Source: Candidatus Brocadiaceae bacterium
GTDB taxonomy: Bacteria; Planctomycetota; Brocadiia; SM23-32
Direction of reading: 5' to 3'
NCBI GenBank assembly: GCA_003551305.1
Contig: PUMJ01000156.1
Location: forward strand, 27,325-91,324
DNA: 64,000 nucleotides
Below are positions 31,100-50,007 of the stretch, piece after piece. The notes beneath the pieces are model-generated. The model made no database searches. It saw nothing but the letters and a program-made list of their open reading frames with translations, and was not told the origin of the DNA. Every line of letters starts with the position of its first letter. Position 1 is the stretch's first letter. The position numbers and the translations under genes were made by a program.

Positions 31100-33298
31100 A
31101 TGGCCACGCAATCCCAACCGCAACCCGACGAACCCGACACGCCCGCCCTGGCCCCGCCCGAGGTGCACAGGGGCCCCGACCCGACCCGGGCCGTCAGGAC
31201 CCGCGCCTTCCAGGGCATCCCCAGTCTCGCCTGCGGTCCGCAGCGCCGCCGTTACGCCGTCTGGTACGGCGGCCCGACCCCCGGGGAGGACGACAATAAC
31301 TACGTAATCCTGGCGGTCAGCGTGGACGACGGCGCCACCTGGTCGGAGCGGCTGATCATCGACCCCGACGGCCCGGGGCCGGTGCGCGCCTTCGACCCGC
31401 AGGTCTGGCTGACCCCCGACGGCCGGCTGTGGGTTTTCTGGGCCCAGGAAGCAAAAGCCTCTCGCCCCGGCGGCCCCTGTGGCGTGTGGGCCATCTCGGC
31501 CCCCGAGGAGGCATGCTGCGCCCCGGACTGCCCGTGGTCGGAACCGCGCCGGCTCTGCGACGGCGTGATGATGGGCAAACCCCTGACCCTGACCGACGGC
31601 ACCTGGGCCCTGCCGGTTTCCTTCTGGAACCGGCGCGAGGCGGCCAGCGCGGGGATGGTGGTCTCGACCGATGCCGGGGCCACCTGGTCCGAGCGCGGGG
31701 CCTGCACCGTGCCCGAGGAGGTCCGCGACCACGACGAGCATCAGATAGTCGAGCGGCGCGACGGCTCCCTGTGGATGCTGGTGCGCACCCGCACCGGCAT
31801 CGGCGAGAGCCGCTCCGAGGACAGCGGGCGCACCTGGTCCGATCTGGAGCCGTCGGACATCCCTCACGTCGTCTCCCGCTTCTTCATCCGGCGCCTGCAC
31901 TCGGGGAATCTGTTGCTGGTGCGGCACGACCCCGCCGACGGCGACTTCGCAGACGGCACCTCGCGGGGCACCCGCTCGCACCTCACCGCGTTCGTCTCCG
32001 ACGACGACGGCGCCTCCTGGCAGGGCGGCCTGCTGCTGGACGAGCGCACCCACGTCTCTTACCCCGACGGCGACCAGGCCGAGGACGGCACCATCTGGAT
32101 CACCTATGACTACCGGCGCACCGCCGACCGCGCCATCCTGCTGGCCGGTTTCACCGAGGCCGATATCCGGGCCGCCGATGCCGATGCACCCTCCGTGCGG
32201 CGACGGATGGTGATAAGCGCCCCGCCGTCCGGCATCGACGTCGGCGTCGAACCGCCTGACCCGCCCAACGACGGGATCCTGTTCGTGGACCACTCAAGAG
32301 ACGGGCGCAGTGGCCATCTGGGCCACGCCCTGGTTGAGTACGGGCCGGGGAAGATTCTGGCCTTTTATGCGAACTGTTCGGACGACAACGGCGGACATTC
32401 GGCCGTCGGCTGGATGGAGTACAGGCGCTCCGAGGACGGCGGCCGCACCTGGGGCGCAGCGGTGGCCCTGGACTACTCGAAGCGCACGTACGAGGCCGGC
32501 GCCGGCCGGTCGGTCATGTGTGAGAAGGCGATTTGCACGGACGAAGGCGACATCGTCCTGTTCAACCTCGAATGCGACATCGCCACCAGCGCCCTGTGGC
32601 GACCCTACGGAACACCCACCTGCCTGCGCAGTTCGGACGACGGGCACACCTGGTCGGATGCCAGGCCCTTGAGCGATCAGCGGGGGCGGGTCTATGACGT
32701 CATTCGCCACAAGGATGCCATCCTGGCCCTGGAGTTCTGCAATGACGCGACCGAGACCTGGACCGGCACTCGGCCGGAGCACGTGTACACTCTCTACGCC
32801 AGCACGGACGGCGGGGAGACCTTTTGCCCCCGCAGCATCCTGCCTTTCGATACCGAGGGCCGGGGCTACGGCACCATGGCGGTGCTGCGCGACGGCAGCT
32901 TGATTGCATACATCTACAACAAGGCCGACGAACAGCACCTCGATTACGTGATCAGCCATGACGACGGAAGGACCTGGAGCAGACCCGGCCGGGCGTTCTT
33001 CGCCCGACACATCCGCAACCCGCAGATGGCCGCGTTCAAGGACGGCTACGTGCTGCACGGCCGCAGCGGCAATTTCGGGGAAGAGGCCGCCAAAGGGCAT
33101 CTGGTGCTTTACACCTCGGGCGACGGCATCCACTGGGATGAAGGCCGCTACCTGCAACGTCGTAGCGCCGGGCTCGGCGCCTACTCGAACAACCTGCTTG
33201 TCCACGACCCCGAGGCGCAGCGCGAACGCCTGCTCATCCAGGCATCGCACGCCTACGACCGCAACATGACCAACATCCACCACTGGTGGCTGACGTAA
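31100..33298 (+). CDS. BNR-repeat (sialidase/GH33-like) two-propeller protein, no signal peptide
   Basis: Start at Met43 (AGGAGGGAGACC-ATG). At least 8 Asp-box motifs: SVDDGATWS, STDAGATWS, SEDSGRTWS, SDDDGASWQ, SEDGGRTWG, SSDDGHTWS, STDGGETF, SHDDGRTWS. Confidence 0.75.
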   Translation: MATQSQPQPDEPDTPALAPPEVHRGPDPTRAVRTRAFQGIPSLACGPQRRRYAVWYGGPTPGEDDNNYVILAVSVDDGATWSERLIIDPDGPGPVRAFDPQVWLTPDGRLWVFWAQEAKASRPGGPCGVWAISAPEEACCAPDCPWSEPRRLCDGVMMGKPLTLTDGTWALPVSFWNRREAASAGMVVSTDAGATWSERGACTVPEEVRDHDEHQIVERRDGSLWMLVRTRTGIGESRSEDSGRTWSDLEPSDIPHVVSRFFIRRLHSGNLLLVRHDPADGDFADGTSRGTRSHLTAFVSDDDGASWQGGLLLDERTHVSYPDGDQAEDGTIWITYDYRRTADRAILLAGFTEADIRAADADAPSVRRRMVISAPPSGIDVGVEPPDPPNDGILFVDHSRDGRSGHLGHALVEYGPGKILAFYANCSDDNGGHSAVGWMEYRRSEDGGRTWGAAVALDYSKRTYEAGAGRSVMCEKAICTDEGDIVLFNLECDIATSALWRPYGTPTCLRSSDDGHTWSDARPLSDQRGRVYDVIRHKDAILALEFCNDATETWTGTRPEHVYTLYASTDGGETFCPRSILPFDTEGRGYGTMAVLRDGSLIAYIYNKADEQHLDYVISHDDGRTWSRPGRAFFARHIRNPQMAAFKDGYVLHGRSGNFGEEAAKGHLVLYTSGDGIHWDEGRYLQRRSAGLGAYSNNLLVHDPEAQRERLLIQASHAYDRNMTNIHHWWLT

Positions 33299-33399
33299 CG
33301 TGAAAGCATCGCCCCCGGGGGCATGCCTGCGTGCGGCTGCGCCCGGCGCCGCGAAACACGCAACTTTCGCAGAACCGGACAAACAGTGAAGGAGAGATC

Positions 33400-34737
33400 A
33401 TGCGGCTTCGGGTTAGCCCCGACGGGCATTTTCTGCAGCATGCAGACGGAACGCCGTTCTTCTACCTGGCCGACACGGCGTGGATGCTGGCCAACAAGCT
33501 GACGGAAGCGGAAGCACGCCGCCTGTTCGAGGACCGGGCCGCGAAGGGCTTCACGGCGATCCAGGCCGTGGTCTTTCGAGACATGTTCGAGGTCAACACC
33601 CCGAACGTGTACGGCGTCCGTCCTTTCGCCGGCGAGGCTGAACTGCACGCCGTGGAGATCAACCCCCGGTGGATCGAGTATGTGGTCCGCCTGACGAACG
33701 TGGCGGCGGAATACGGTCTGGTGATGGCCTGGCTGCCCACGTGGGGCGACAAGTGGAATGAGCACTCCAACTCGGCAGGCCCCGTCGTCATGGACGAGCG
33801 CTCGGGCGAGGCCTACTGCCACGATCTTTCCGATGCCCTCGGGGAGTGTGAGAACGTGATCTGGATCCTCGGCGGGGACAGTCCCATCAGGACCCAGGCG
33901 CACGCCGATATCGTGCGCGCCATGGCGCACGGTATCCGGGCCGGTGCGAGCGGGGACCGGTTGATCAGCTACCATCCCTCGGGTGGCTCGTCGTCGGCCA
34001 TCTTCCACGCTGAAGCCTGGCTGGACATCAACGCCGTGCAGTCGGGGCACGCCCGGTTGAACGTGCCGAACTACCGCTCGATCGAAACGTTCTATCACAC
34101 GTCGCCCCCCAAGCCCTGCCTGGATTTCGAGCCCAACTACGAGGGGATGCCGGTCGGCTTCGGCCGCCAGAACGGCATCGAACCGGAGCAGCGCGCCTTC
34201 TTCGACGACTACGACGTGCGCCGGAGCCTCTACCGCAGCGTGCTGGCGGGCGCGGCGGGCTTCACGTACGGCTGCGATCCGGTGCGCCAGATCTACCGGC
34301 CCGGCGACCGATGCCATGCATGGGACGGTCGCTGCATCGAGACGTGGAGCGAAGCACTCGATGCGCCGGGTTCGTCCCAACTGCAACTGCTGAAGCAACG
34401 GCTGTTGGAGCGCAGCTACTTCTCCCGGCTGCCCGCCCAGGAACTGCTGCTGGAGCCGAAAAGCGACGGCGCCGACCATCCCGTCGCGCACGCCGCCGTC
34501 GCGCGCTGCAGCGAAGGCGGTTACATTATGGTGTATGTCCCGATCCGTCAGATGCTTACCATTGACACATCGGTCCTGGCGGCCCGGCGACTCCGCGTAT
34601 CCGTCTACGGCCCCGAAGCCTGCGTATGCCGTCGATCATGGGAAATGGACAACGAGGGAGTCTTCCGTTACATCCCGCCACGGAGGCTTGACACGTTCAT
34701 CACGATCGACGCGGTGGAGCCGGAGGGTACGGTGTGA
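33400..34737 (+). CDS. DUF4038 (GH140-like) putative glycoside hydrolase
   Basis: From Met24 (GAAGGAGAG RBS): MRLRVSPDGHFLQHADGTPFFYLADTAWMLANKLTEAEARRLFEDRAAKGFTAIQ is the conserved DUF4038 N-terminus. Confidence 0.65.
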   Translation: MRLRVSPDGHFLQHADGTPFFYLADTAWMLANKLTEAEARRLFEDRAAKGFTAIQAVVFRDMFEVNTPNVYGVRPFAGEAELHAVEINPRWIEYVVRLTNVAAEYGLVMAWLPTWGDKWNEHSNSAGPVVMDERSGEAYCHDLSDALGECENVIWILGGDSPIRTQAHADIVRAMAHGIRAGASGDRLISYHPSGGSSSAIFHAEAWLDINAVQSGHARLNVPNYRSIETFYHTSPPKPCLDFEPNYEGMPVGFGRQNGIEPEQRAFFDDYDVRRSLYRSVLAGAAGFTYGCDPVRQIYRPGDRCHAWDGRCIETWSEALDAPGSSQLQLLKQRLLERSYFSRLPAQELLLEPKSDGADHPVAHAAVARCSEGGYIMVYVPIRQMLTIDTSVLAARRLRVSVYGPEACVCRRSWEMDNEGVFRYIPPRRLDTFITIDAVEPEGTV

Positions 34738-36176
34738 TAGACAGGAGTAGCCCCACGCGGGCTGCCGCCACCTGTCCGACATGTTCTATCCTATTCGCCT
34801 TGAGCAAAACGCGGCCAAACGACCGAAAGGGCCATATTGTGGTCAATTCACCGCCACCGGGATCGAAACCGCCGCTGCGCTTCGAAGTCATTGTGTGCGG
34901 CGGCGGACCGGCCGGGATATGCGCCGCCATCACCGCCGCCGAGACCGGGCGACGGACGCTTCTGGTCGAGGCCGCCGGACGACTGGGCGGGACCGGCGTC
35001 AACGCCCTGGTCAACCAGATTCGCCGCTGGACCGACACCTCATACGTGGAGCGCTTCCTCGATCGCCTGGACGGCTTTGTGGACGACAGCGAGTTCCTCG
35101 ACCTGCGCTATGCTGACCTGGTGCAAGAGGCCGGCGCCGAGATACTTCTGCATGCCACCGTGGGGGAGACGGTGCTGCGGCCTGTTGCGCAAGGGAGTGG
35201 GGGGCCGACGGTGGCCGGTGTGCGCCTGGCCACACCCTCCGGACCGCTGACGGTCGAGGCCGAACGTGTGGTCGATGCCAGCGGCGATGGTGTCGTCGCC
35301 TTCCTGGCCGGTGCGGCCTTCGACTGCGGTCGCCCGGAAGACGGCCTGATGCAGCCGGCGACCATCATGTTCAGGGTCGGCGGCGTCGACCACCCGGCGA
35401 CTATGGAGGCCCGGGGCGGCCGCGGCAGCTACCGCTTCCCCGATGGTTCCACCTGGGACCAACTTACCATGGCTGCCTGCGCCCGCGGCGAGTTGCCGCC
35501 CAATGTCGGCAAGGTACGGACCTATCCGGCCGAGCGCCGGGACGAACGCTACATCAATGCTACCCAGATTAACCATGTCGACGGAACCGACCCCTTCGAC
35601 CTCACCCACGCCGAACTGGAGGGGCGCCGCCAGGTGCCTGTGATCATGGACTTCCTGCGTCGATACGCCCCGGGCTTCGCAGATGCCTACGTGTCTTTGA
35701 TGCCGGCGGTGGTGGGGATTCGGGAAACACGGCGCTTCCGTGGGCTGTACACTCTACGCCGCGAGGACTGCCTGACCGGTCGGAGGTGGGATGATGCGGT
35801 GGTGACCGGTTGCCGGGCACCGATAGACATCCACAACCCGGATGGACCGGGACAGGTCGAAGGAGTTTCGAAGGAACACCCGGCCGGACGTGACCCCGCC
35901 CCGCAACCCTACGACATCCCCTACGGTTGCCTGGTACCCGAGGCTCTCGACGGTCTGCTGCTGGCCGGCCGCTGCATCAGCGGTGACCATGGCGCCCACG
36001 CCTCCTACCGCTGGCAATCGCTGTGCATGGCCACCGGGGCAGCCGCCGGCTTCGCCGCCGCCGCATCACTGGATCAGAATGTGCAACCTCGCGATCTTGA
36101 CATCCGCCCCGTCCAGAACGCCCTGGGGATCGTCCGTCCGCAGGACGCCTCCAACGCGGAAGGGACCCAACCATGA
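34734..36176 (+). CDS. FAD-dependent oxidoreductase (PF12831-like), paralog 1
   Basis: FEVIVCGGGPAGICAAITAAETG (GxGxxG)...GDGVVAFLAG... Start uncertain: the track GTG at 34734 overlaps the upstream TGA (GTGA); an alternative GTG lies at 34839. Confidence 0.6.
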   Translation: MIDRSSPTRAAATCPTCSILFALSKTRPNDRKGHIVVNSPPPGSKPPLRFEVIVCGGGPAGICAAITAAETGRRTLLVEAAGRLGGTGVNALVNQIRRWTDTSYVERFLDRLDGFVDDSEFLDLRYADLVQEAGAEILLHATVGETVLRPVAQGSGGPTVAGVRLATPSGPLTVEAERVVDASGDGVVAFLAGAAFDCGRPEDGLMQPATIMFRVGGVDHPATMEARGGRGSYRFPDGSTWDQLTMAACARGELPPNVGKVRTYPAERRDERYINATQINHVDGTDPFDLTHAELEGRRQVPVIMDFLRRYAPGFADAYVSLMPAVVGIRETRRFRGLYTLRREDCLTGRRWDDAVVTGCRAPIDIHNPDGPGQVEGVSKEHPAGRDPAPQPYDIPYGCLVPEALDGLLLAGRCISGDHGAHASYRWQSLCMATGAAAGFAAAASLDQNVQPRDLDIRPVQNALGIVRPQDASNAEGTQP

Positions 36177-37501
36177 CTGACAATGCTGAACGCATCACCT
36201 GGAACCGCCGCCTCCCACTGCGCTACCGCTGCGACGTGGCGGTGATCGGCGGCGGCATCGCCGGGGTCTGCGCCGCCTGCGCGGCCGCCGTCGAGGGGGC
36301 CGAGGTCATCCTTGTGGAGCGCTTTGCCGTGACCGGCGGCAACGCCACGGTCGGTGGTGTGGCCAACTGGTCGGGCGAGACCGCCGGCCAGGGCGCCATC
36401 TTTGATGAGATTATCGCGGACCAGGAGGAGTGTAACAGCATCGCCCCCTATCGCGGCCCTTACGCCCGCGAGCGCGCCAACCGGACCTTCGACCACGAGA
36501 TACTGGCTGTAATCCTCCAGGAACTGCTGCTGCGGCATGGGGTGCGCCTGCTGCTGCACACACGCTTTGTGGACATCCAGCGGGAAGGTGGTCGGCTGGG
36601 GCCCGCGGTGCTGGCCGGCGCGTCCGGCCTGGAAGCGCTCGACGCCGAGGTGTTCGTCGACACATCGGGTGGCGCGGTGGTGGCCCGGGCCGCCGGCTGC
36701 GCGCTGCTGCCGCCGGGCGGTCTCGGCCCGTTGCCCCCGTCGCTGATGTTCTTCGTGCGTGAACTGGCGGAGCCGGTCGGCCCGCAACTGCCCGACGGCT
36801 GGTTCGAGCCGGTCCGGAGCGAAGGGGACCTGCCGATGACCAGCACCTGGCCCGATGGCCCGGGCGGCAAGGCGCTGAAGCTCAAGGTTCCCGGTTACGA
36901 CAGCGGCGACACTGAATCCATGACCGCCCTCGAGGTCCGGGCGCGCCGGAGGATGTGGGAGGTGCTCGACTACTATCAGCGCGACTTCCGGGGCGAAGCC
37001 GCGCCCGCACTACGAAACCAGCCGAAAAACGCCGGGGTGCGAAACTGGCGGTTCGGGCACGCTTCCCCTATCATCGGCCTGCGCGAGACCCGGCGCATCG
37101 CGGGGGACTACGTGCTGACCGTTGACGATCTGCGGGCCGGCCGGGCTTTCGACGACGGCGTCGCCCGCGGCGTCTTCTACCTCGACGCCATGCGCCCCGA
37201 CGACGAGCAACGCACCTATCTGTTGAGCAAGGATGAGCAAGTCGTGCCGCCCTATCACATCCCGTACCGCAGCCTGATTGCGCGCGACACCGCCAACCTG
37301 CTGATGGCCGGCCGCTGCTTCTCGGCCGACCAGATGGCCCTCTCCTCGGCCCGGGTCATGCCGACCTGCGCGATGATGGGCCAGGCCGCCGGCATCGCCG
37401 CCGCCTGGAGCGCCGATCGGGGTTGCCGACCACGCGATCTCGATGGACGCGAGCTGCGGCGGCGGCTCGAAGCGCGCGGCGCGAACCTGAATCTGCCATG
37501 A
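36173..37501 (+). CDS. FAD-dependent oxidoreductase (PF12831-like), paralog 2
   Basis: CDVAVIGGGIAGVCAACAAAVEGAEVILVER (GxGxxG)...; ATGA overlap with paralog 1; same domain order. Confidence 0.65.
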   Translation: MTDNAERITWNRRLPLRYRCDVAVIGGGIAGVCAACAAAVEGAEVILVERFAVTGGNATVGGVANWSGETAGQGAIFDEIIADQEECNSIAPYRGPYARERANRTFDHEILAVILQELLLRHGVRLLLHTRFVDIQREGGRLGPAVLAGASGLEALDAEVFVDTSGGAVVARAAGCALLPPGGLGPLPPSLMFFVRELAEPVGPQLPDGWFEPVRSEGDLPMTSTWPDGPGGKALKLKVPGYDSGDTESMTALEVRARRRMWEVLDYYQRDFRGEAAPALRNQPKNAGVRNWRFGHASPIIGLRETRRIAGDYVLTVDDLRAGRAFDDGVARGVFYLDAMRPDDEQRTYLLSKDEQVVPPYHIPYRSLIARDTANLLMAGRCFSADQMALSSARVMPTCAMMGQAAGIAAAWSADRGCRPRDLDGRELRRRLEARGANLNLP

Positions 37502-37511
37502 AGGAAAGACG

Positions 37512-37673
37512 ATGAGTGATCGCCCCGGCATCCTGCTGCTGATGACCGACCAGCAGCGCCGGGATTCCCTCGGCCCTGTGACACTGTCCGGACCGCGTCG
37601 GTATCCGCGACTTGCTGCTGGAACGCCTGCTCGACTGGTTCAGCACACATGAGCTGATACCGCAAAGGACACC
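37512..37673 (+). pseudogene. internally deleted sulfatase remnant (N-terminal and C-terminal fragments only)
   Basis: RBS AAGGAAAG then ATG: MSDRPGILLLMTDQQRRDSLG (canonical sulfatase N-terminus). After a frame change: IRDLLLERLLDWFSTHELIPQRTP (sulfatase-like C-terminal helix), whose TGA overlaps the ATG of intact sulfatase 37674. Confidence 0.5.
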
Positions 37674-38978
37674 ATGAAGAAACGTCAACCCAACATCATC
37701 CTCTTCCTTTCCGACGATCTCGGTTACAATGACCTGTCATGCTACGCGCCGGAACGGCATCACACCCCGCATATGGATCGTCTGGCCGAGGAGGGGCTCC
37801 GCTTCACGGATTTCCACAGCAACGGCGCCGTCTGTTCGCCGACCCGCGCCGCGCTTCTGACCGGCCGGTACCCCCAGCGCTGCGGCGTGGAACACGTCCT
37901 GCCCGGCATCAAGCCCGGCGGCGGCAAGGCGCGCGCTGGTGAGCGGGCGACGTTATCCCCATCGGACTTCAACCTGGGCCGCGCGTTCGCGCAGGCCGGA
38001 TACGCGACCGCGTTTTTCGGCAAGTATCACACGGGATACCTTCCCGATCAATCGCCGCTCAAAATGGGGTTCGCCGAGTTCCGCGGCATCTGCGGCGGCA
38101 TGGATCACCATTCCCGCTACAACCGCTGGGGGGCTCTCAACTGGTGGGTCGGTCAGACCCCGCAGCAGGAAGATGGCTACGCCACCGATCTTATCACCGA
38201 TCACGGCCTGCGTTTCATCACGGAACATCGTGACGAACCCTTCCTGCTGTATCTGGCGGACTGGTGCGTCCATTTCCCCTGGCAGGGCCCCCATGATCCG
38301 GCCGATTTCCGCGACGGGGTCGACAACGACCGCACCCCGGGCAAATGGGGGAGCCAGTATCCCCGACGCCACCGCCAGGCCTACCGCGAGATGGTCGAGG
38401 CCCAGGACCGCAACCTGGGCCGGATCGCCGACACCCTGGACGCACTGGGGCTACGCGAAGACACCCTGCTGATCTTCTGTTCGGACAACGGCGGCCATCA
38501 TGAGGTGACGGACAATGCCCCCCTGCGCGGCCACAAGGGCGACATGTTCGAGGGCGGCCACCGGGTGCCGGCCTTCTGTCGCTGGCCGGGGCGCATCCCG
38601 GCCGGACGCGTCAGCCAGGACGCGGCCATGACCATGGACCTGTTGCCCACCCTGCTGTCCATTTCCGGCATCGCACCCCCGAAGGGCGGGGACTTCGACG
38701 GGATCGACCTGTCCGCACATCTCTTCCGGGGCACCCCCCTGCCGGAACGGCCGCTGTTCTGGCGGGGGGGTTCCGAGAAGGCCGCCGCCCGCCAGGGCCG
38801 CTGGAAATACGTCCGACAGGGCGGTCGGGAATGGCTCTTCGATCTGGCCGAGGACCTCGGCGAGAGCACCGACCTTCTGGCGGGCTACCCCGAGCGGGCC
38901 GCCCGGCTCAGGCAGGCCCTGGCCCATTGGGAGCAGGATGTCGACACCTCCTACCAGCTATCACGGAGCGGAACATGA
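37674..38978 (+). CDS. sulfatase (Cys-type)
   Basis: MKKRQPNIILFLSDDLGYNDLS...AVCSPTRAALLTGRY (C-x-P-x-R)...IFCSDNGGH...GHKGDMFEGG; no signal peptide. Confidence 0.85.
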   Translation: MKKRQPNIILFLSDDLGYNDLSCYAPERHHTPHMDRLAEEGLRFTDFHSNGAVCSPTRAALLTGRYPQRCGVEHVLPGIKPGGGKARAGERATLSPSDFNLGRAFAQAGYATAFFGKYHTGYLPDQSPLKMGFAEFRGICGGMDHHSRYNRWGALNWWVGQTPQQEDGYATDLITDHGLRFITEHRDEPFLLYLADWCVHFPWQGPHDPADFRDGVDNDRTPGKWGSQYPRRHRQAYREMVEAQDRNLGRIADTLDALGLREDTLLIFCSDNGGHHEVTDNAPLRGHKGDMFEGGHRVPAFCRWPGRIPAGRVSQDAAMTMDLLPTLLSISGIAPPKGGDFDGIDLSAHLFRGTPLPERPLFWRGGSEKAAARQGRWKYVRQGGREWLFDLAEDLGESTDLLAGYPERAARLRQALAHWEQDVDTSYQLSRSGT

Positions 38979-39026
38979 ACCAGACCTGTTCTCAACAGCG
39001 AATTGCTGAATCCGAGGAATGGTAGC

Positions 39027-39968
39027 ATGCGCGTGTTCAATCCTTATGAGAACGCTTTTTCGCGTCACTGGTTCAAAGGCGATCTTCATCTGCACAGTGA
39101 TCGCAGTGACGGCCGCGCTTCCGTGCCGCAGATCCTGGATCGGCTGCGAGCGTGCGGCTTTGATTTCGCCGCATTATCCGATCACGAATGTTATGGCCCT
39201 ACCGATGAGCGAACCTCGCCCATACTCATCGGCAACAGCGAAATGCGCAGCGCCGAGGGTGGTGACGTGCTGACATTGTTCGCCGAGGTGTCGAACGATC
39301 CTGGGGGAGCGGGCGTACAGGATTTAATCGACCGGACGCGCGCCAACGGTGGGCTAGCCGTGCTGGCTCATCCGAAAATCGGTGAATTCGGAACAACCAA
39401 GCATCACTGGGCCTATCCATGCCATGCGTTGATCGGCAATTATCATGGCTATGCTGGCCTGGAAGTCTATACGCACAATGTCGGCAGTGGTTTCCAGACA
39501 GCCATCGACAGGCTTGATGCCGTCTGGATCGCAGGCTGCCGGGACGCAAACGAATCGATGGCGATCTGGGGACTGGCCGGCAGTGATGCGCATGATCTCA
39601 ACTGCATCACGCCCGATGTGGGGATTCTTGTCTCGGCGACCGAATGCTCGGCATCCGCTCTGCGCGCCGCCATTCAACAAGGCAGTTTCTACTCCCTGGC
39701 CGGATCGTGCGCCCGCTTTACCGACATCAGCGTCACCGGCAATCGACTGCGCGTAGAAGCTGAGAACGCCAAAATGATACGGATCAAGGGCGGTCCACTA
39801 TCCAGCAATCCAGGAGACCGAACGACCCATGCCGTGGCATGGGCCGGAGACAGCGAAAGTGTATTGTGTGAATACGAGATTCGTGGGTCGGAAGGGTTTG
39901 TGAGGGCTGAAGCATCGGATCGGCACGGCGGCCTTATTTTTGCGAACCCAATCCGTTTAGGCCGATAG
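39027..39968 (+). CDS. PHP-domain metal-dependent phosphoesterase (CehA/McbA-like)
   Basis: From Met9 of the track ORF: MRVFNPYENAFSRHWFKGDLHLHSDRSDGRASVPQILDRLRACGFDFAALSDHE...LAHP...GSDAHD. Confidence 0.7.
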   Translation: MRVFNPYENAFSRHWFKGDLHLHSDRSDGRASVPQILDRLRACGFDFAALSDHECYGPTDERTSPILIGNSEMRSAEGGDVLTLFAEVSNDPGGAGVQDLIDRTRANGGLAVLAHPKIGEFGTTKHHWAYPCHALIGNYHGYAGLEVYTHNVGSGFQTAIDRLDAVWIAGCRDANESMAIWGLAGSDAHDLNCITPDVGILVSATECSASALRAAIQQGSFYSLAGSCARFTDISVTGNRLRVEAENAKMIRIKGGPLSSNPGDRTTHAVAWAGDSESVLCEYEIRGSEGFVRAEASDRHGGLIFANPIRLGR

Positions 39969-39970
39969 CA

Positions 39971-40141
39971 ATGAGCAACAGGCACGATCCCGCCCACAAA
40001 CACATCCGCGACCGCTTACTGGAAAGCCTGCTTGTCTGGTTACGGCAACACGAACCAGTGACCCACAGGAGCACGATGACCCGTCGACCCAACATCATTT
40101 TCTTCCTCGCCTCCTATCACTCCGTGAGGAACCACCCATGA
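39971..40141 (+). pseudogene. sulfatase-array junction remnant (C-terminal fragment of one sulfatase plus N-terminal fragment of the next) as a 56-codon ORF
   Basis: MSNRHDPAHKHIRDRLLESLLVWLRQHEPVTHRST-MTRRPNIIFFLASYHSVRNHP*. The IRDRLLESLLVWLRQHE part is homologous to the tail at 37583..37673. MTRRPNIIFFLAS is a sulfatase start with AGGAG 5 nt upstream. The TGA overlaps the BNR gene ATG. Confidence 0.45.
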
Positions 40142-41406
40142 ACCAGACATACCACCATATCCGCGTGACCGACCGGGGGGATCAGGTGGCGACCATCGAC
40201 ATGGTGCCGCCGGAGCGCACGCCCCGCTGGGCCGAGGGCGTGGCGGCCGGTAATCGCCCCTGGTCGCCGCCGACCGAAGAGCCGGTCTTCCACCCGCCCA
40301 TCGCCTTCGTCGTGCCGCCGCCGGAGGGTTCCGGCGAGCCCTTCTACTCCCACAACCATCAGCCCGCCATCACCTGGTGCGCCAACGGCGATTTGCTGGC
40401 GGCATGGTACTCGACCGAGCGAGAGCGCGGCACCGAGATGACCGTGCTGGCCAGCCGTCTGCGCACGGGCCGCCAGGCCTGGGATCCGGCCGCCGAGTTT
40501 TTCAAGGCCCCGGACCGCAACATGACCGGCACCGCGCTCTACCACGACGGCCGCGGCACCCTCTACCATTTCAACGGCATGGGGCTCGAGGGCACAGAAG
40601 GCTGGGAGCGGCTCGCCCTGCTGCTGCGCACCAGCACCGACCACGGGGTCACTTGGTCGCCGGCCCGGCCCATCTCCTCGGGTTCCCGTTACCAGCGCCG
40701 GCATCAGGTGATTGCCGGCACCAGCCGCGGCCCCGACGGCCTGCTGATCCAGCCCTGCGACGCCACACCGACCGGCAAAGGTTCCAGCTGCGTCCATCTC
40801 AGCACTGACGGCGGGCAGACGTGGCACGATCCGGGCGGCGACATCCGTGGCATCCACGCCGGGGTGGTCGCCCTCGACGATGGCCGCCTGCTGGCCTTCG
40901 GGCGCGCGCAGGCCCTCGACGGTCGCATGCCGATGAGCATCTCCGATGACCGGGGTGCGAGCTGGCGCTCGCTGCCCGGCCCCTTCCCGCCGATCGGCAC
41001 CGCCCAGCGCTTGGTGCTGCTGCGCCTGCGCGAAGGGCCGTTGCTGCTGGCCTCCTTCACCGGCGCGACCCATCGCCTGCCGCGTGAGCAGTGGCCCGGC
41101 ATGCCCTTCCAGGACGCCAGGGGGCGCTCCTTCACCGGCTACGGGCTGTTCGTCGCCTGCTCGTGGGATGCCGGCCAGACCTGGCCGTTGCGCCGGCTGC
41201 TGACCCCGGGGGCCGGCACCTGGGACGGCGGCGGCCACACCGGCCTTTTCACCGGCAGCGCCACCGAGGCCGAACCAAAGGGCTACCTGGCCGCCACCCA
41301 GCCCCCGAACGGCGTGATCCACCTGATCTCCAGCCGACTGCACTACCGCTTCAACCTGCCCTGGCTGACCGGGGGCGGTGAGCATGGCGGCAGTGACCAA
41401 CGATGA
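40138..41406 (+). CDS. BNR-repeat sialidase-like beta-propeller protein
   Basis: Asp-boxes STDHGVTWS, STDGGQTWH, SDDRGASWR, SWDAGQTWP; 422 aa; no signal peptide. Confidence 0.7.
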   Translation: MNQTYHHIRVTDRGDQVATIDMVPPERTPRWAEGVAAGNRPWSPPTEEPVFHPPIAFVVPPPEGSGEPFYSHNHQPAITWCANGDLLAAWYSTERERGTEMTVLASRLRTGRQAWDPAAEFFKAPDRNMTGTALYHDGRGTLYHFNGMGLEGTEGWERLALLLRTSTDHGVTWSPARPISSGSRYQRRHQVIAGTSRGPDGLLIQPCDATPTGKGSSCVHLSTDGGQTWHDPGGDIRGIHAGVVALDDGRLLAFGRAQALDGRMPMSISDDRGASWRSLPGPFPPIGTAQRLVLLRLREGPLLLASFTGATHRLPREQWPGMPFQDARGRSFTGYGLFVACSWDAGQTWPLRRLLTPGAGTWDGGGHTGLFTGSATEAEPKGYLAATQPPNGVIHLISSRLHYRFNLPWLTGGGEHGGSDQR

Positions 41407-42230
41407 CCGGGCAACCGGAAGGATCCGCGATGACAGACGACACCCCGGCGCAGCCGACCTTCGGCGGGCACGAAGCGTTGCCCGGGTTCACCAGCACCCC
41501 TCACCCGCTGCCGGACGGTCGGGAACTGACCGCTTGGAGTCGTCCCGGAAATGGCCCGACCCTCATCCTGATCCCCGGCACCTGGGGCGATCTGCAGAGT
41601 TGGTCCCCGCTGATCTCACGCCTGCCGCCGGAGCAGGCCATCATCGTGGTGGAGTTGTTCTGGCAGGGCGGTCGAGCGTTGCTGGACGGCCCGCTGGACA
41701 TCCCGGTGCTCGCCGATGCCGTCCAAAGGGTCATTGATGCTCTGCAGCCGGGCCCGTTCGTGATCGGCGGCATAAGCCTGGGCGGGATGATCACAGTGGA
41801 GATCGCCGGGCGGAATCCTGCCGGCCTGGTCGCGGCCATCCCGATGGAGGGCTGGACACATCATAGCGTGCGCGAAACGGCATTCCACGGCCTTGTCCAC
41901 ACTCCTCTGAGCCCGGATCAGGAGCGGCGCCGTCTCGCCGAACGGAGCCGCCGTCTGGCGCACCTGTCCCCCGAACAGCAGGCCGCCGTCGGGTCCATCT
42001 GGCGGCGGTGGAACGGCGCCGACGCCCTTGCCCGCTCCACGGTCCCCATCCTCCACATCTGGGGCGACAGGGGCCGCCCGCGCCCCGAACCCGCCGACCT
42101 GCAGATCCCGCGGCGGCCGAACATTACCGTAGCCTGGATCGCTGGTTCGTCACATCGTTTGCTGCTCCAGGCGCCCGATGCCCTGGTTCGGACGGTGCGC
42201 AACTTCCTGGCCTCAGCGGGTTCTCCATGA
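41403..42230 (+). CDS. alpha/beta-hydrolase fold protein
   Basis: Nucleophile elbow GGISLGG; LILIPGTWGD; 275 aa; ATGA overlap with the upstream gene. Confidence 0.7.
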   Translation: MTGQPEGSAMTDDTPAQPTFGGHEALPGFTSTPHPLPDGRELTAWSRPGNGPTLILIPGTWGDLQSWSPLISRLPPEQAIIVVELFWQGGRALLDGPLDIPVLADAVQRVIDALQPGPFVIGGISLGGMITVEIAGRNPAGLVAAIPMEGWTHHSVRETAFHGLVHTPLSPDQERRRLAERSRRLAHLSPEQQAAVGSIWRRWNGADALARSTVPILHIWGDRGRPRPEPADLQIPRRPNITVAWIAGSSHRLLLQAPDALVRTVRNFLASAGSP

Positions 42231-42357
42231 CCCGTCTGCTGATACTAACTCCGCACCCCGGCAAGCCGAATGACCGACATCCACGACAGGGGCCCCGCCC
42301 GATCGCAACGTGCAGCCCGTTGCCCCCGCCATACCCATTCATAGATTGGACTCCCGT

Positions 42358-43830
42358 ATGAACAGGCCGAACATCCTCTTGATCCAGACAGATCAGCACA
42401 ATGCGCACCTGGCCGGGTTTGCCGGCCATGGCACCGTCCGGACTCCGGCTCTGGACCGTTTGGCGGCGCGTGGCACGGTCTTCGATGCCGCTTACTGCCA
42501 ATCGCCGCTCTGCGTACCAAGCCGCACCAGCATGCTGGCGGGCACCTACGTGCCGAAGTGCGGGGCCTGGGACAACGGATCGGTCCTCTTCCCCGAACAC
42601 ACCACACTGCCGGGGTGGATGGGCGATCATGGTTACGTCAGCGCCGCTGTGGGGAAGATGCACTTCCGCGGCCGCGAACAGATGCACGGCTGGCAGCATC
42701 GCCCCTTTGGCGACCTGGTGGAATGCATCGCCCCGATGCATCAGCCCGATCCACCGGAGACCGCCGACGGGCGCTGGAACCGTCACGCCGTCGGTCGGTT
42801 CCCCTTCGCCGGGCCGACGCACATCCCCGAGGGTCTGCTGGCCGACCCCCTCATCACCCGCGAGAGCCTGGCCTGGCTCGCCGAATACACCGCGTCCGGC
42901 GACGATCGGCCCTGGTTTTTCTGCGCCTCTTACCAGCGGCCACATTTCCCCCTCACCGCCCCCGAACGCTACATCCGGGCCGCCCTCGATGCCGACCCGG
43001 ACCTGCCCGAACCGCCCCCCGACGACCTTGATCAGCTGCATCCCCATGATCGGTTCATCGTCGAGGATTTCCGACTGCGGAGATTTGCACCGGAGGAGCA
43101 TCGCCGTGCCCTGGCGGGCTACCATGCCTGCGTCGCCTTTGTCGACGATTGCATCGGCGACTTGCTCGCCGGCATGGAGCGGCTGGGGCTGTTGGAGAAC
43201 ACCTGCATCGTTTACACCTCCGACCACGGCGACATGGCTGGCGAGCACGGCCTGTGGTGGAAGCGGACCTACTACGAGGCCTCGGCCCGCGTGCCGTTGA
43301 TCATCGCCGGGCCGGGCCTGCCCGCCGCCGAACGCGTTGCGACCCCGGTCGAGCTGGTTGATCTCTTCCCCACCCTGTGCAACTGGGGCGGATTCGGAGT
43401 GCCCGAGGGGCTGGACGGCGAGGATCTCTCCTGCCTGCTCGACCCGGCTCGCAGACAGCAGCGGCGCAAGCGGGTAGCCCGCTCAGAACTGCTGGGGGAG
43501 ACAACGTCCACCCGGTTCCGCATGGTCCGTGATGAACGCTGGAAGCTGGTCGCCTTTCCCGAGGCACCCTCCCGGCTGTTCGATCTCCGCGACGACCCCG
43601 ACGAACGGACGGACCTCGCCGGTTCGCCACCGGCCGACGCGCCGATGGAACAGTTGCAGGACGCCCTCCGTGGGGGCCACGACTGGCAGGATCTCGAGCG
43701 CTGCCGGCAGCGGGACCGCCAGCGCGCCGCCGCCTTCCGCAGTGACACACGCAGCCCGAGCACCATGCAATACCGCCTGCGCGACGGACGCATCATCCCC
43801 GGCGACGCCCAGTTGTACGACCTGGCGTGA
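42358..43830 (+). CDS. sulfatase (Cys-type)
   Basis: MNRPNILLIQTDQHN...YCQSPLCVPSRTSMLAGTY (C-x-P-S-R)...YTSDHGDMAGEHG; no signal peptide; start at Met17 of track ORF 42310. Confidence 0.85.
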   Translation: MNRPNILLIQTDQHNAHLAGFAGHGTVRTPALDRLAARGTVFDAAYCQSPLCVPSRTSMLAGTYVPKCGAWDNGSVLFPEHTTLPGWMGDHGYVSAAVGKMHFRGREQMHGWQHRPFGDLVECIAPMHQPDPPETADGRWNRHAVGRFPFAGPTHIPEGLLADPLITRESLAWLAEYTASGDDRPWFFCASYQRPHFPLTAPERYIRAALDADPDLPEPPPDDLDQLHPHDRFIVEDFRLRRFAPEEHRRALAGYHACVAFVDDCIGDLLAGMERLGLLENTCIVYTSDHGDMAGEHGLWWKRTYYEASARVPLIIAGPGLPAAERVATPVELVDLFPTLCNWGGFGVPEGLDGEDLSCLLDPARRQQRRKRVARSELLGETTSTRFRMVRDERWKLVAFPEAPSRLFDLRDDPDERTDLAGSPPADAPMEQLQDALRGGHDWQDLERCRQRDRQRAAAFRSDTRSPSTMQYRLRDGRIIPGDAQLYDLA

Positions 43831-43860
43831 GAACCTCGCTTGCTGTTCAACAGCGGGGGG

Positions 43861-44062
43861 CCACAGGCTGCACGTGCGCAGCCGGCTGCGGGGGATCACG
43901 CGTGAAAGGCTCTCAGCGTGCCCTGCTTCGGACAAGCGGAGCCGAGCAAGTGCAGCGGCTCAGTCGCCGCTGTGCCGCTTGCTCCTCCCGCTTCTCTGCG
44001 CCGCGAATACCTCCACAGGCCTTTCCGATGGAGCGGGTGCCCGTCTGGGAAGGAGCGGGGGA
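43861..44062 (+). repeat. intergenic repeat family A, copy 1 (~202 bp)
   Basis: About 88% identical to 46615..46817 by eye over its full length. Contains nested palindromes ggctgcacgtgcgcagccggctgc and an imperfect long inverted repeat gagcaagtgcagcggc...gccgctgtgccgcttgctc. Confidence 0.7.
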
Positions 44063-44212
44063 AAACAGGAGTTTCCCCGAAAACCGGAGGGGGTGGGCAG
44101 CAAGTGGTTGGCCTGACGAGGGTTATGCTTTTGGGGATATGGAAGGCAGGATTCTCCGGTAAGATAGGCTAACCGAGGTGGTCCTTTTGGGGAATCTCCG
44201 GGTAGGAAAACC

Positions 44213-44241
44213 TTGACCTCCCCCAACCCGCCCCCTAAAGT
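44213..44241 (+). promoter_or_regulatory. putative sigma70-like promoter for the GH-A gene
   Basis: TTGACC - 17 nt - TAAAGT, about 70 nt upstream of ATG 44311. Confidence 0.3.
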
Positions 44242-44310
44242 GAACGGAGACGGTAAACACTTACGGCCGCGTTTCGCCCGCACTAATATGACCTTCGAAA
44301 CGAGTCTGCG

Positions 44311-46575
44311 ATGTCCAATCCGTTGCTGACCATTCTGGCCGGATGTTTCCTGATCACCGTCGGCCTGCAGGCCGCCTCCGCCGCAACCGAGGGCGAGTCG
44401 CCCCGTCAACTCCAGGAGCGGACGACCTGGCCCTGTCCGCTTCCGCCCGACACGCTCGATCCCGCCGCGCTGTTGGACCTGCGCTATCTGAACGAGGAGC
44501 AGGCCGGCATGCACGGGTTCGTCAGCGTCGACGCCGAGGGCGGCTTCCGGCGTGGCGACGGTGAACCGCTGCGTTTCTGGTCCACGGTCGTGAAGTGGCA
44601 GACCAAAGACCCGGCCGAGATGGACCGCCTCGCCGGCTGGCTGGCCAAGCGGGGCGTGAACCTGGTGCGGCTGCACCCGCGGATCTGGACGCGCGAGGTC
44701 AAGCAGTTCGGTCAGATCGACCGCCAGGAGCACGACCACGTCCGCCAGATGGTGGCGGCCCTGAAGAACCACGGCATCTACACCCAGTTGCTGCTCTACA
44801 GCGCCATGGACGGCCAGGGGCTGCATGACCGCGTCGAAGGCGTGCCGGTCGGGCGGGAAGTCCGCTCGCCGCTGCAGACGGGCATCCTGTTTCTGCACGA
44901 GGGGCTCCAGGAGTTCCTGAAAGAATGGACCACCGCTCTGTTGACCGAGCCCAACCCCCATACGGGACTGCCGCTGGCCGAGGACCCGGCCGTGGCCCTG
45001 ATCGAGATCCAGAACGAAGACTCGCTGCTGTTCCACACTGTCAGAAACCTCCAGGGCGAAGACCTCAGGCTGGCCCAGTCGCTGTACGGCCAATGGCTGG
45101 CCCAGCGGTACGGCAGTCTGGAGCAGGCGCTCACGGCCTGGGGCGGTGCGCGGGCGGAGGGCGATGATCTCGCCGAAGGCCGGGCCGGCTTCTACCACCT
45201 CTGGGACCTGACCCGCGCGGGCATGGCCCACCATCGTCCCAGCGCGGCCGCGCGCCGGCGAATGGCCGACCAGACGCAGTGGTACACCGAGACGATGCGC
45301 AACTTCAACAAGGAGTTCATCACGTTCCTTCGCGAGGAGTGCGGCGTACGGGTGCCGACTATCCCGGGCAACTGGCGCACCGCCGACGACGTGACTCTCA
45401 TCGAGAACGAGCGCTACAGCTATGCCGTCGGCGAGGTGATCGCCGCCAACCGCTACTTCACCGGCGTCCACGCCGGGTCCAGGACGCACTACTGGGTCAG
45501 CCAGGACGACCACTTCGCGCCGGCCGCGATCGTGCTGGAGCCCGAGAGGCTTCCGATCAATGTCCGCCAGTTCAAAGGCAAGGCCTTCGCCGTCCCCGAG
45601 ACGATGTGGGTCGAGCCCAACACTTACCAGAGCGAGGGCGCACTGGCGATCGCGGCCTACCAGTCGCTCACCGGGGTCGACATCGTGCATTGGTACCACC
45701 AACGCGGCGACGACTGGCATACCCCCGCCACCTGGCGGCCAGGCTACGGGAAGTTCTCGGCCAACACACCGATGATCCAGGGCCTCTGGCCCGCGGCGGC
45801 GCTGCTGTTCCGTCAGGGGTACCTGCAACAGGCCCGGCCGGTGCTCATCGAGCGCCGCAGCCTGCAGGCGCTGTGGCAGCGCGAGGAGCCGGTCATCGCC
45901 GAGCAGGCCGTCTTCGACCCCAACCGCGACATCAGCGATGAGGCTCGGGCAAGCGGCTTTGAGGGCCCGGTCGATCCACTGGCGTTCATGGTCGGGCCGG
46001 TGCTGGTGGACTATTCCGAGGATCCCCAGCCCAGCGAGCTCATCGACCTGACGCCCTACATCGACCGGGACGGCCGGATCGTGCGGGCACGGACCGGCGA
46101 GATCGCGCTCGACTACGGCCTGGGTCTGCTCCGCGTGGAAGCCCCGAAGGTGCAGGCGGCCGCGGGCTTCCTCGGGCGGGCCGGGCGGCAGGAGTTCGCC
46201 GACGTCACCATCGACAGCGGCAACGAGTTCGCCAGCGTCATCATCATCGCGATGGACGATCGGCCCCTGCGCGAGTCGGCCCGGGTGCTCGTCCAGGTCG
46301 GCACGCGCCAGGAGCCGACAGGCTGGGACGTGGAAGAGGCCGAGTTCACCACCAGGGACCAGACCGTCCAGGGCTTCAAGATCGTCGATGTCGGCGGTCC
46401 CCCGTGGCAGATCGAGCGGGCCGACGTGCGGGTCCGCGTGGCGAACCCGTCCCTGCGCACGGCACACGTGCTCGACATCAACGGCATGCCTGTCGCCACC
46501 GTGCCGCTTGATCGCGACACCGACAGCGTGACCTTCCGCTTCCCGGTCGACGCGTTGTACGTCGTGCTTGAGTAG
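44311..46575 (+). CDS. secreted clan GH-A (TIM-barrel, GH5-like) glycoside hydrolase
   Basis: Signal peptide MSNPLLTILAGCFLITVGLQAASA; acid/base-like IEIQNEDS; 754 aa; family not assigned. Confidence 0.6.
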   Translation: MSNPLLTILAGCFLITVGLQAASAATEGESPRQLQERTTWPCPLPPDTLDPAALLDLRYLNEEQAGMHGFVSVDAEGGFRRGDGEPLRFWSTVVKWQTKDPAEMDRLAGWLAKRGVNLVRLHPRIWTREVKQFGQIDRQEHDHVRQMVAALKNHGIYTQLLLYSAMDGQGLHDRVEGVPVGREVRSPLQTGILFLHEGLQEFLKEWTTALLTEPNPHTGLPLAEDPAVALIEIQNEDSLLFHTVRNLQGEDLRLAQSLYGQWLAQRYGSLEQALTAWGGARAEGDDLAEGRAGFYHLWDLTRAGMAHHRPSAAARRRMADQTQWYTETMRNFNKEFITFLREECGVRVPTIPGNWRTADDVTLIENERYSYAVGEVIAANRYFTGVHAGSRTHYWVSQDDHFAPAAIVLEPERLPINVRQFKGKAFAVPETMWVEPNTYQSEGALAIAAYQSLTGVDIVHWYHQRGDDWHTPATWRPGYGKFSANTPMIQGLWPAAALLFRQGYLQQARPVLIERRSLQALWQREEPVIAEQAVFDPNRDISDEARASGFEGPVDPLAFMVGPVLVDYSEDPQPSELIDLTPYIDRDGRIVRARTGEIALDYGLGLLRVEAPKVQAAAGFLGRAGRQEFADVTIDSGNEFASVIIIAMDDRPLRESARVLVQVGTRQEPTGWDVEEAEFTTRDQTVQGFKIVDVGGPPWQIERADVRVRVANPSLRTAHVLDINGMPVATVPLDRDTDSVTFRFPVDALYVVLE

Positions 46576-46614
46576 ACCCAGCTTCGATGCGGCAATACGC
46601 CCGCAGGTGGATGT

Positions 46615-46817: not shown

Positions 46818-46909
46818 CAAGCCCTTGACATATCCTATACAGTCGAATAAGCTTGGTTCCAGGCGACAGGACCGGCTGGCGGGATCGGAAGGGGAGGAGG
46901 CGGCCCACT

Positions 46910-48794: not shown

Positions 48795-48820
48795 GCAAGG
48801 TGCAGTCGGCGCGCGGGTTG

Positions 48821-50005: not shown

Positions 50006-50007
50006 GT

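Follow-up and report, generated by a model that had tools for sequence, protein, structure and literature searches.

A lower-GC hydrolase gene followed by decayed sulfatase ends, probably inserted at a sulfatase/BNR gene overlap by short-homology recombination

The closest described process to the one discussed here is homology-facilitated illegitimate recombination (HFIR), known from foreign-DNA uptake in Acinetobacter baylyi, Streptococcus pneumoniae and Pseudomonas stutzeri, in which illegitimate joints of 3–10 bp form beside a homologous anchor (PMC6382021). The thresholds for RecA pairing lie at 9–15 bp, and that for strand exchange at about 26 bp (PMC6382021). As we read it, the present locus resembles HFIR in that foreign DNA adjoins sequence with a homologue in the recipient, in that a homologous joint is paired with an illegitimate one, and in that mobile-element machinery is absent. 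It differs in that the homologous tract is ~12–25 nt, whereas classical anchors exceed 150 bp, and in that classical events usually leave donor sequence in the anchor, whereas here there is none beyond ~12 nt. The outcome would also differ, resident sequence being interrupted, with a short stretch duplicated, instead of being replaced, and RecA dependence and transformation, as properties of the process, do not show in a sequence. Transposable elements offer another comparison: IS4-family elements generate target-site duplications of 11–13 bp, and an 11-bp direct repeat flanks our segment. Unlike such elements, the segment has neither inverted termini nor a transposase, and its right repeat copy appears to have come with it as a homologous junction. 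A Campbell-type single crossover yields the same topology, with an insert between two hybrid copies of a shared site, but the site shared here is 11 nt long and nothing points to a circular donor or a site-specific recombinase.

The segment lies in the 64-kb stretch of DNA analysed here (the window), within an operon that runs from an apiosidase-like gene through two FAD oxidoreductases, a collapsed sulfatase (X), an intact sulfatase (Y) and a BNR gene to an alpha/beta-hydrolase and a further sulfatase (Table 1). The 11-mer ATGAACCAGAC has exactly two copies in the window, the left one at 38975–38985, and each is an ATGA stop/start overlap whose ATG sits on the TGA of the upstream ORF. On the left this ORF is sulfatase Y (TGA at 38976–38978), and on the right it is a 56-codon ORF, remnant B, whose TGA overlaps the BNR ATG. 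The original prediction had described this repeat, placing its left copy one base off at 38976, and had seen only the PHP gene and the 56-codon ORF between the copies (38986–40137); the repeat and this gene content are both confirmed. It had also warned that chance matches of 11 nt are common in a sequence of 64 kb, which holds. The 11-mer did not occur in 100 shuffles, and across 154 fetched loci it was found at the sulfatase/BNR junction only, with no recurrence at unrelated sites. The repeat stands above chance because of external evidence, namely this restriction to one type of junction and the empty site in L002, and not because of the 11-mer alone.

Table 1. Features of the locus, in window coordinates.
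Feature	Coordinates	Strand	Basis or remark
Remnant A, collapsed sulfatase X	37512..37673	+	Three-frame translation, L002 sequence
Sulfatase Y, 434 aa, resident	37674..38978	+	Pfam PF00884, E 3.6e-58
Left junction copy	38975..38987	+	ATGAACCAGAC plus CT; resident Y stop/BNR start; 4 BNR codons left
16-codon ORF, MNQTCSQQRIAESEEW and stop	38975..39025	+	4 BNR codons, then insert sequence
Segment read as inserted foreign DNA	38988..40137	+	Absent from L002 and L156
PHP-superfamily (CehA/McbA-like) metallohydrolase, 313 aa, intact	39027..39968	+	NF038032 full-length match, below cut-off
Remnant B, 56-codon ORF, three apparent donor pieces	39971..40141	+	Alignment to L083 X, Y
X′ tail in B	~39977–40075	+	61% identity to L083 X residues 450–480
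Y′ first 13 codons in B	40076 to ~40109	+	Aligns to Y starts
Y′ last ~9 codons and stop in B	~40110–40141	+	L083 Y tail
Right 11-mer copy	40138..40148	+	Donor-type sequence on left, resident-type BNR on right
BNR_2 (sialidase-like beta-propeller), resident	40138..41406	+	Pfam PF13088, E 5.9e-23

A close relative carries the locus without the segment. L002, a Candidatus Brocadiia MAG with 90–96% nucleotide identity, matches the window collinearly to the left and right of the segment, but exactly the 1,163 nt from one copy to the other are absent (the exact ends of the indel being ambiguous within the repeat), and its sulfatase stop directly overlaps the BNR start. Window positions 30936–38987 align to L002 1976–10013 at 90.0% identity, and 40137–41434 align to L002 10000–11297 at 96.4%. 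The 14 nt common to both alignments, L002 10000–10013 (CATGAACCAGACCT), are present there in single copy and match both window copies. An independent assembly, L156 (SRR31818007), has the same uninterrupted arrangement. Synteny with L002 picks up again at window 47138–53148; these are therefore related genomes rather than carriers of a shared island. In the outgroup L083 (Y 83% identical in amino acids), the Y tail is followed by ATGAACCAGACCTACCATCAT and the junction is again uninterrupted. The left junction of the window is identical to the L002 and L083 sites at 13 of 13 nt, and base 40149, just past the right 11-mer, is A, in contrast to the C found at this position in the left copy, L002 and L083.

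Because the junction is empty in the outgroup as well, insertion in the window lineage is the parsimonious direction, and the empty sites of L002 and L156, the L083 junction and the foreign composition of the segment together favour insertion. For its timing relative to the split of the window and L002 lineages, parsimony is the only guide, since a precise loss could also be brought about by the repeat itself. The flanking genes show neither an identity step nor a donor tract against L002: sulfatase Y is 94.9% identical in nucleotides (95% in amino acids) and BNR is uniformly 96.4% identical, already reaching 0.96 in its first 250 nt. Among about 147 loci with genes for BNR relatives, none has a PHP homologue, and a metagenome scan with BNR returned relatives at ≤67% identity throughout, adding no informative close lineage.

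The stretch between the 11-mers has a GC content of 0.572 against a window mean of 0.678 (SD 0.025), a deviation of −4.2 SD; it is the lowest 1,152-nt stretch of the window, and 0.1% of stretches are as low. The GC3 of the PHP gene is 0.615, and that of its neighbours is 0.76–0.89 (0.818 for sulfatase Y); the overall GC of BNR is 0.712. The nearest PHP homologue, L080, is 81% identical in nucleotides over the CDS only and 77% in amino acids, and that of L081 is 72% identical in amino acids. Their contigs have GC contents of 0.572 and 0.52, homology ends at the ends of the CDS, and neither contig has flanking sequence in common with the insert or sulfatase remnants downstream. In checks at the left joint (left of 38988), the PHP homologues had no common upstream sequence, and a donor search by metagenome scan with the PHP protein found no relative. 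The segment and its surroundings contain no tRNA, no Rfam match and no promoter or terminator signal above background.

The PHP gene is intact. Its product covers positions 1–312 of 315 in NCBIfam NF038032 with a score of 71.2 bits, below the curated cut-off of 80, and matches Pfam PHP (PF02811) at E 2e-4 with a score of 22.1, below the cut-off of 26.4. It retains all 43 invariant columns of a 19-member alignment. H21, H23, D52, H53, E72, H115, H150 and D187, invariant in 19 homologues, are all present and include the predicted His/Asp/Glu metal ligands with the N-terminal HxH. The dN/dS of the gene is 0.22–0.25 against the L080 and L081 homologues. Upstream, the four BNR codons at the left junction read on into insert sequence as the 16-codon ORF, whose TAG stands 1 nt before the PHP ATG and which includes the PHP ribosome-binding site GAGGA. 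This mini-ORF, for which the original prediction had proposed a check, has no homologue except in the same organism's Logan contig.

Downstream of PHP, remnant B begins 2 nt past the stop codon. The earlier view of this ORF as a sulfatase tail fused to a sulfatase start is borne out as far as it goes: its IRDRLLESLLVWLRQHE portion aligns to the tail at ~37603–37673 and the MTRRPNIIFFLAS portion to the beginning of sulfatase Y, with ~72–75% identity over roughly 118 columns, and AGGAG at 40067–40071 precedes the internal ATG at 40076. Comparison with L083 reveals three pieces rather than two, namely an X′ tail (E 4e-6 against L083 X in one search and 1e-7 in another), a Y′ start and a Y′ tail. 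The last of these matches the L083 Y tail at 20 of 25 nt ungapped, a score reached by 0 of 2000 shuffles. The relation is evident only through L083, as the last 35 nt of B gave no significant match when aligned directly to the Y tail of the window itself, where 219 of 2000 shuffles scored as high. A search of 5.8 billion proteins with the whole ORF returned only itself. Because the ~27 nt preceding the right 11-mer are Y′ tail, this copy was not made by the insertion; judged by its sequence, it is the donor's own Y′/BNR′ junction, brought in with the insert. The original prediction had offered two possibilities: that PHP and a sulfatase–sulfatase junction were inserted and the junction thereby duplicated, or that a deletion took place in the opposite sense. 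Insertion is supported by L002, L156, L083 and composition, but the origin of the right copy must be amended. Remnant B keeps the Y/BNR junction type of L083 and resembles that lineage (a 65%-GC contig), whereas PHP resembles lineages of 52–57% GC; the two need not share a long history. The ~1.16-kb segment is probably lower-GC foreign DNA that combines an intact hydrolase gene with decayed donor sulfatase ends.

Remnant A, upstream of sulfatase Y, records a similar collapse in the resident cluster. It keeps the first ~21 codons of X (MSDRPGILLLMTDQQRRDSLG) and the last ~31, ending in IRDLLLERLLDWFSTHELIPQRTP and a TGA (37675–37677) that overlaps the ATG of Y. The tail at 37583–37673, to which B had been correctly related, is itself part of a second collapsed sulfatase, shared with L002. 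The window copy of this remnant carries a frameshift, whereas L002 has it as an open frame of 54 codons, which matches both ends of the intact 480-aa X of L083 (E 2.5e-4 at the N-terminus, 4e-5 at the C-terminus); B matches the X C-terminus. Its identity to L002 is 83.7% against 93–95% for the flanking genes, and therefore points to relaxed constraint. Gene X has had at least four independent fates: L083 has it intact and overlapping Y, the window and L002 retain its start and tail, L084 has it fused to Y, and in B the tail alone is left. Both remnants resemble decaying pseudogenes in being internally deleted sulfatase genes, with A evolving faster than its neighbours, but differ in keeping gene ends with the neighbours' stop/start overlaps and ribosome-binding sites. 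Elsewhere, the alpha/beta-hydrolase gene, which overlaps the BNR stop, is cut down in L002 to 11 codons that are followed by a different gene, and L083 retains 21 BNR codons before unrelated sequence; the same constraint is therefore visible at other junctions too. In L085, a 55-aa ORF that precedes the Y orthologue was considered as a BNR-start remnant and rejected, as it had no significant match to any BNR locus. For annotation, the ORFs at 37512–37652, 38975–39025 and 39971–40141 are remnants, not genes.

Short direct repeats ~1.2 kb apart are a known substrate for deletion. PHP and B could thus have been present in the ancestor of the window organism and L002 and been lost precisely from L002 by slipped-strand or RecA-independent deletion between the 11–13-bp repeats, and the L002 sequence is the exact product expected. 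We consider this unlikely, as it takes two events instead of one, the outgroup junction is empty, and a GC3 of 0.615 in a genome with GC3 near 0.8 suggests short residence; the original insertion would still be needed, and timing alone would change. Somewhat less plausible again is ectopic recombination or gene conversion from a paralogous PHP–X′–Y′–BNR′ island in another lower-GC region of the same genome. Only 64 kb of that genome are visible, such genomes are rich in sulfatase paralogues (at least four sulfatase-like matches in the window), and B, though only 63% identical in nucleotides to the resident copy, is clearly homologous to the resident X–Y–BNR junctions. That difference of ~37% nevertheless weighs against such a source, as do the lack of a second PHP or B-like sequence within the window and a segment composition equal to that of the nearest external PHP contig, and the ultimate origin would be foreign in any case.

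A single-gene insert flanked by a direct repeat also recalls a non-autonomous mobile element or integron-type cassette, with the 11-mer as target-site duplication or recombination core site. We regard this as highly improbable. An inverted-repeat search of 36000–42000 found no pair joining the insert ends (beginning CTGTTCTCAAC and ending GAGGAACCACCC), and PHP and the remnant ORF are the only genes of the segment, with no transposase or integrase between its ends and no copy elsewhere in the window or the 154 loci. The 170 nt 3′ of PHP are fully explained by sulfatase gene ends and hold neither an attC-like palindrome nor an Rfam match, and no integrase was found among the cluster genes scanned. 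Moreover, the 11-mer is a conserved coding junction found in insert-free relatives, and the left flanks of its two copies are homologous via the L083 Y tail, unlike those of a de novo duplication. An assembly chimera, in which a contig from an organism of 57% GC was built into one of 68% GC, is just as remote. The window is probably a metagenome-derived assembly, and two Logan contigs (run SRR490150) break inside PHP, L082 corresponding to window 36671–39387 and L001 to 39458–43515, with 39388–39457 uncovered. These separately assembled contigs nonetheless span both junctions at 100% identity, the k-mers used by assemblers are far longer than the 11 to 13 identical nt, and PHP is collinear with its homologues over its whole length.

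We therefore favour, at roughly 70% probability, insertion of a foreign ~1.15-kb fragment at the Y/BNR overlap, from a donor with a diverged version of the cluster, by an HFIR-like event. Ancestrally, Y and BNR would have been joined by the 4-nt ATGA overlap in a high-GC (68%) planctomycete-type operon for glycans or sulfated polysaccharides. The fragment, from a lower-GC (~57%) organism whose cluster may have run PHP hydrolase, decayed X′, decayed Y′ and BNR′, would have integrated exactly there. On the right, where donor Y′ tail and ATGAACCAGAC junction abut resident-type BNR, the donor Y′/BNR′ junction would have paired with its resident counterpart, and resident sequence would take over no more than ~12 nt from the BNR ATG; the left end would be an illegitimate joint lying 13 nt inside the resident BNR gene. 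The 11–13-nt direct repeat follows from the Y/BNR overlap and not from transposition, because an insertion that spares both genes must duplicate the junction. The likeliest route is recombination, short-homology or illegitimate, with the conserved junction as its anchor, and we infer a one-sided, homology-anchored pathway; the product would look no different if a circularised fragment had integrated at the 11-mer in Campbell fashion, or if a replicative template had been switched. The empty site, the foreign composition, the identity of every piece and the intactness of PHP are observed, whereas the order of the donor's genes and the recombination pathway are inferred.

A further reading, which we hold to be doubtful, is that the scars are more than decay products and are kept because they let translationally coupled frames follow one another across the insert with no break. 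The Y stop overlaps the 16-codon ORF, followed after 1 nt by PHP and after 2 nt by the 56-codon ORF, which is built in frame from three gene fragments and overlaps the BNR ATG. If so, selection to keep translation continuous, for coupling or against polarity, would filter indels in operons of overlapping genes, and would explain the near-identical ~100-nt tail in two apparently independent X remnants.

Taken together, the locus is an unusually well-resolved but ordinary gene gain, a new instance of a known process rather than a new kind of element or mechanism. It is a rare single-gene horizontal acquisition that can be read base by base, with empty site, filled site, outgroup and donor scars. 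Two genes with a 4-nt overlap can evidently take up a third between them and both stay undamaged, the insert supplying its own copy of the junction. More broadly, the locus shows that in these sulfatase-rich bacteria the polysaccharide-utilisation clusters change one gene at a time, and that the break-points fall a short way into the adjoining gene.

In the whole window there are exactly two copies of the 11-mer ATGAACCAGAC, one at 38975-38985 and the other at 40138-40148. The original prediction had described an 11-bp direct repeat at gene junctions here; the two copies and their stop/start positions stand, with the start coordinate corrected by one. At each copy, the preceding reading frame ends in a TGA that overlaps an ATG, giving ATGA. 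Between them lie, in order, a 41 nt spacer, a PHP-superfamily (CehA/McbA-like) gene, 2 nt, and a 56-codon ORF that we call remnant B. The neighbouring genes form one dense same-strand cluster with 4-nt overlaps at several of them, and its members are a large BNR protein, an apiosidase-like glycosidase, two FAD oxidoreductases, sulfatase Y, BNR_2, an alpha/beta-hydrolase, and another sulfatase. Among 154 fetched loci the 11-mer is confined to Y/BNR junctions, and it is a conserved coding junction. The filled site is backed independently by Logan contigs of SRR490150, which are 100% identical to the window over 36671-39387 and 39458-43515 and span both junctions.

A genome scan with the BNR protein as query surfaced a sole close relative, L002 (JAWODG010000137.1), a Candidatus Brocadiia MAG. 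L002 1976-10013 corresponds to window 30936-38987 at 90.0% identity and L002 10000-11297 to window 40137-41434 at 96.4%, with L002 10000-10013 (CATGAACCAGACCT) common to both alignments. Exactly the 1,163 nt that separate the repeat copies are therefore missing from L002, where the Y stop directly overlaps the BNR ATG. The same empty site is found in L156 (run SRR31818007), an independent assembly of an L002-type organism, so that the comparison with relatives proposed in the original prediction finds the PHP gene absent between Y and BNR in both. In the outgroup L083 (Logan, SRR34348025), an intact 480-aa sulfatase, X, overlaps Y (83% aa) through ATGA, and downstream of Y comes the same junction, as ATGAACCAGACCTACCATCAT. 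Synteny with L002 picks up again at window 47138-53148 (83.8%), and the two are therefore related chromosomes, more than co-carriers of one island. Just downstream of BNR lies a second cassette-like difference, with 5.7 kb in the window (41403-47138; an alpha/beta-hydrolase, a sulfatase at 42310-43830, and a long ORF region without Pfam match) and 1.2 kb in L002 (11270-12496), which carries an AstE/AspA-type deacylase gene. Opposite-strand ORFs of 1043 and 754 aa overlap there (window 43960-47091, minus strand, and 44311-46575, plus strand), neither with a Pfam match.

The segment between the 11-mers is foreign by composition. At 0.572, its GC is the lowest for its length anywhere in the 64 kb (the window mean is 0.678, SD 0.025), and GC3 is 0.615 in PHP against 0.76-0.89 in the eight neighbouring genes. 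The closest PHP homologues, at 77% and 72% aa (81% and 76% nt), sit on contigs with GC of 0.572 and 0.52, and similarity to them stops at the CDS boundaries. PHP has lost none of the residues that are invariant in its small family, the His/Asp/Glu metal ligands among them; its dN/dS against the homologues is 0.22-0.25, and the CehA/McbA metallohydrolase model aligns to it from end to end at 71.2 bits, just short of the 80-bit cut-off. It is a predicted functional gene. In other organisms, its homologues reside in glycan-degradation clusters, adjoining BNR_2 and further PHP or phosphoesterase genes; of about 147 loci that encode relatives of this particular BNR gene, none has a PHP homologue close by.

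Using L083 as a bridge, we resolved remnant B into three pieces, each from a donor's diverged counterpart (X′, Y′) of the resident sulfatases. The X′ tail matches L083 with an E value of 4e-6 in one search and 1e-7 in another, and none of 2,000 shuffles scored as high as the match between the Y′ and L083 Y tails. The Y′ tail leads into ATGA and the 11-mer. As it precedes the right 11-mer, that copy is the natural Y′/BNR′ junction of a diverged homologous cluster, and it arrived together with PHP; a duplication made at the target is ruled out by the same Y′ tail.

Features of the filled junction and of the sulfatase remnants (window positions unless stated)
Feature	Position	Description
Remnant A	37512-37673; L002 8539-8703; L156 3499-3663	collapsed sulfatase X
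Sulfatase Y	37674-38978	stop at left 11-mer junction
PHP-superfamily gene	39027-39968	intact, 313 codons
Remnant B (56-codon ORF)	39971-40141	stop at right 11-mer junction, coinciding with BNR_2 start
X′ tail in B	about 39977-40075	HDPAHKHIRDRLLESLLVWLRQHEPVTHRS vs L083 HDPAHTQTRDHLLAELLDWLRRHEPATSES, 61% identity
Y′ first 13 codons in B	40076 to about 40109	MTRRPNIIFFLAS vs L083 MMARRPNIILFLS
Y′ last ~9 codons in B	about 40110-40141	L083 Y tail, 20/25 nt ungapped
BNR_2 gene	40138-41406	start overlaps stop of 56-codon ORF

L002 and the outgroup L083 both have the Y/BNR junction uninterrupted, and B records it as a fossil for the donor lineage, which makes the empty state ancestral for the clade. 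The data are accounted for by a single insertion in the lineage of the window. An insertion predating the split from L002, followed by a precise deletion between the repeats in L002, would yield the same pair of states, but it requires two events and fits the un-ameliorated GC3 of PHP less well, and we regard it as improbable. The insertion interpretation of the original prediction is thus supported and sharpened, by the empty site in L002 and L156, the uninterrupted junction in L083, and the donor scars within B.

How the segment entered is constrained by its joints, both of which fall inside the same 13 nt of resident sequence. Resident-type sequence lies left of 38987 and right of about 40150, and BNR holds no donor tract, with 0.96 identity to L002 from its first 250 nt. 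The insert's donor end is homologous to the target. A search of the segment for inverted termini, a recombinase gene, an attC-like structure, a tRNA, or an RNA family found none, and without the first three a transposon or cassette reading is rejected. On the right, the conserved junction would have served as a short homologous anchor; on the left, the joint would be illegitimate. The closest known process is homology-anchored illegitimate recombination, and the integration proposed here resembles homology-facilitated illegitimate recombination (summarised in PMC6382021). An identical outcome would be expected if a circularised fragment had integrated by a single crossover at the shared 11-mer, or if a template switch had occurred during replication.

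Since Y and BNR overlap, no intergenic base is available for insertion. Both genes stay intact only if at least ATGA is duplicated, and selection therefore guarantees a junction repeat in surviving insertions. This logic also fits break-points in L002 and L083. In L002, the first 11 codons (MTGQPEGSAMT) of the alpha/beta-hydrolase gene are left, overlapping the BNR stop, before the AstE/AspA-type gene. In L083 (3210-3480), the BNR orthologue downstream of intact X and Y is cut down to its first 21 codons; unrelated sequence comes next, and another BNR_2-like gene, not the orthologue, sits at 3671.

Loss of gene X has occurred more than once and has left different scars. The sulfatase tail originally placed at 37583-37673 is indeed one, and is refined as part of remnant A, in which the first ~21 X codons (MSDRPGILLLMTDQQRRDSLG) are fused to the last ~31. 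In the L002-type assemblies, remnant A reads in frame as a 54-codon ORF and has been called as a gene; the window copy carries a frameshift. Its identity between window and L002 is 83.7%, against 93-95% for flanking genes, a faster divergence as expected of a pseudogene. L083 keeps X whole, the window and L002 keep its start and tail, and B keeps the tail alone, perhaps plus 3 start codons; the tails of the two X remnants, apparently independent, start 1-3 codons apart. A further relative, L084 (GCA_003557395.1, PWOM01000467.1; 2100-2215), has a Y orthologue (80% aa) with a chimeric 5′ end, in which the sequence upstream of X and its first five codons (MNDRP) run into Y from codon 6. Here, X seems to have been removed when the paralogous N-terminal regions of the two genes recombined. 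In a more distant relative, an uncultured Planctomycetaceae MAG (L003 3707-6237; BNR 66% aa), the FAD oxidoreductase leads directly to BNR with no sulfatase between, and the X-Y pair itself may be an older insertion into a FAD-BNR core.

After the insertion, the longest untranslated gap from Y to BNR is 2 nt, the reading frames running from Y through a 16-codon ORF, PHP, and the 56-codon ORF to BNR. Bridging ORFs arose by chance in 5.5% of spacer shuffles and 2.0% of B-region shuffles, both post hoc tests. The frames between Y and BNR are open in part because the fragments descend from coding sequence, and remnant A, frameshifted in the window, speaks against the idea. We consider a selected role as relay ORFs unlikely. 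Another relative (L085 3337-3504; GCA_036681025.1) has a 55-codon ORF with 4-nt overlaps to both neighbours, an upstream beta-helix protein gene and a Y orthologue (73% aa). No homology to X, BNR, or any fetched locus was detected for it, and it may be another bridging scar. Its contig and that of the nearest PHP homologue, L080, belong to one low-GC metagenome assembly.

Taken together, the evidence supports the horizontal acquisition of a PHP/CehA-like hydrolase gene, inserted where two genes overlap and accompanied by the scars of the donor's homologous sulfatase pair: an unusually legible new instance of an already known kind of event.
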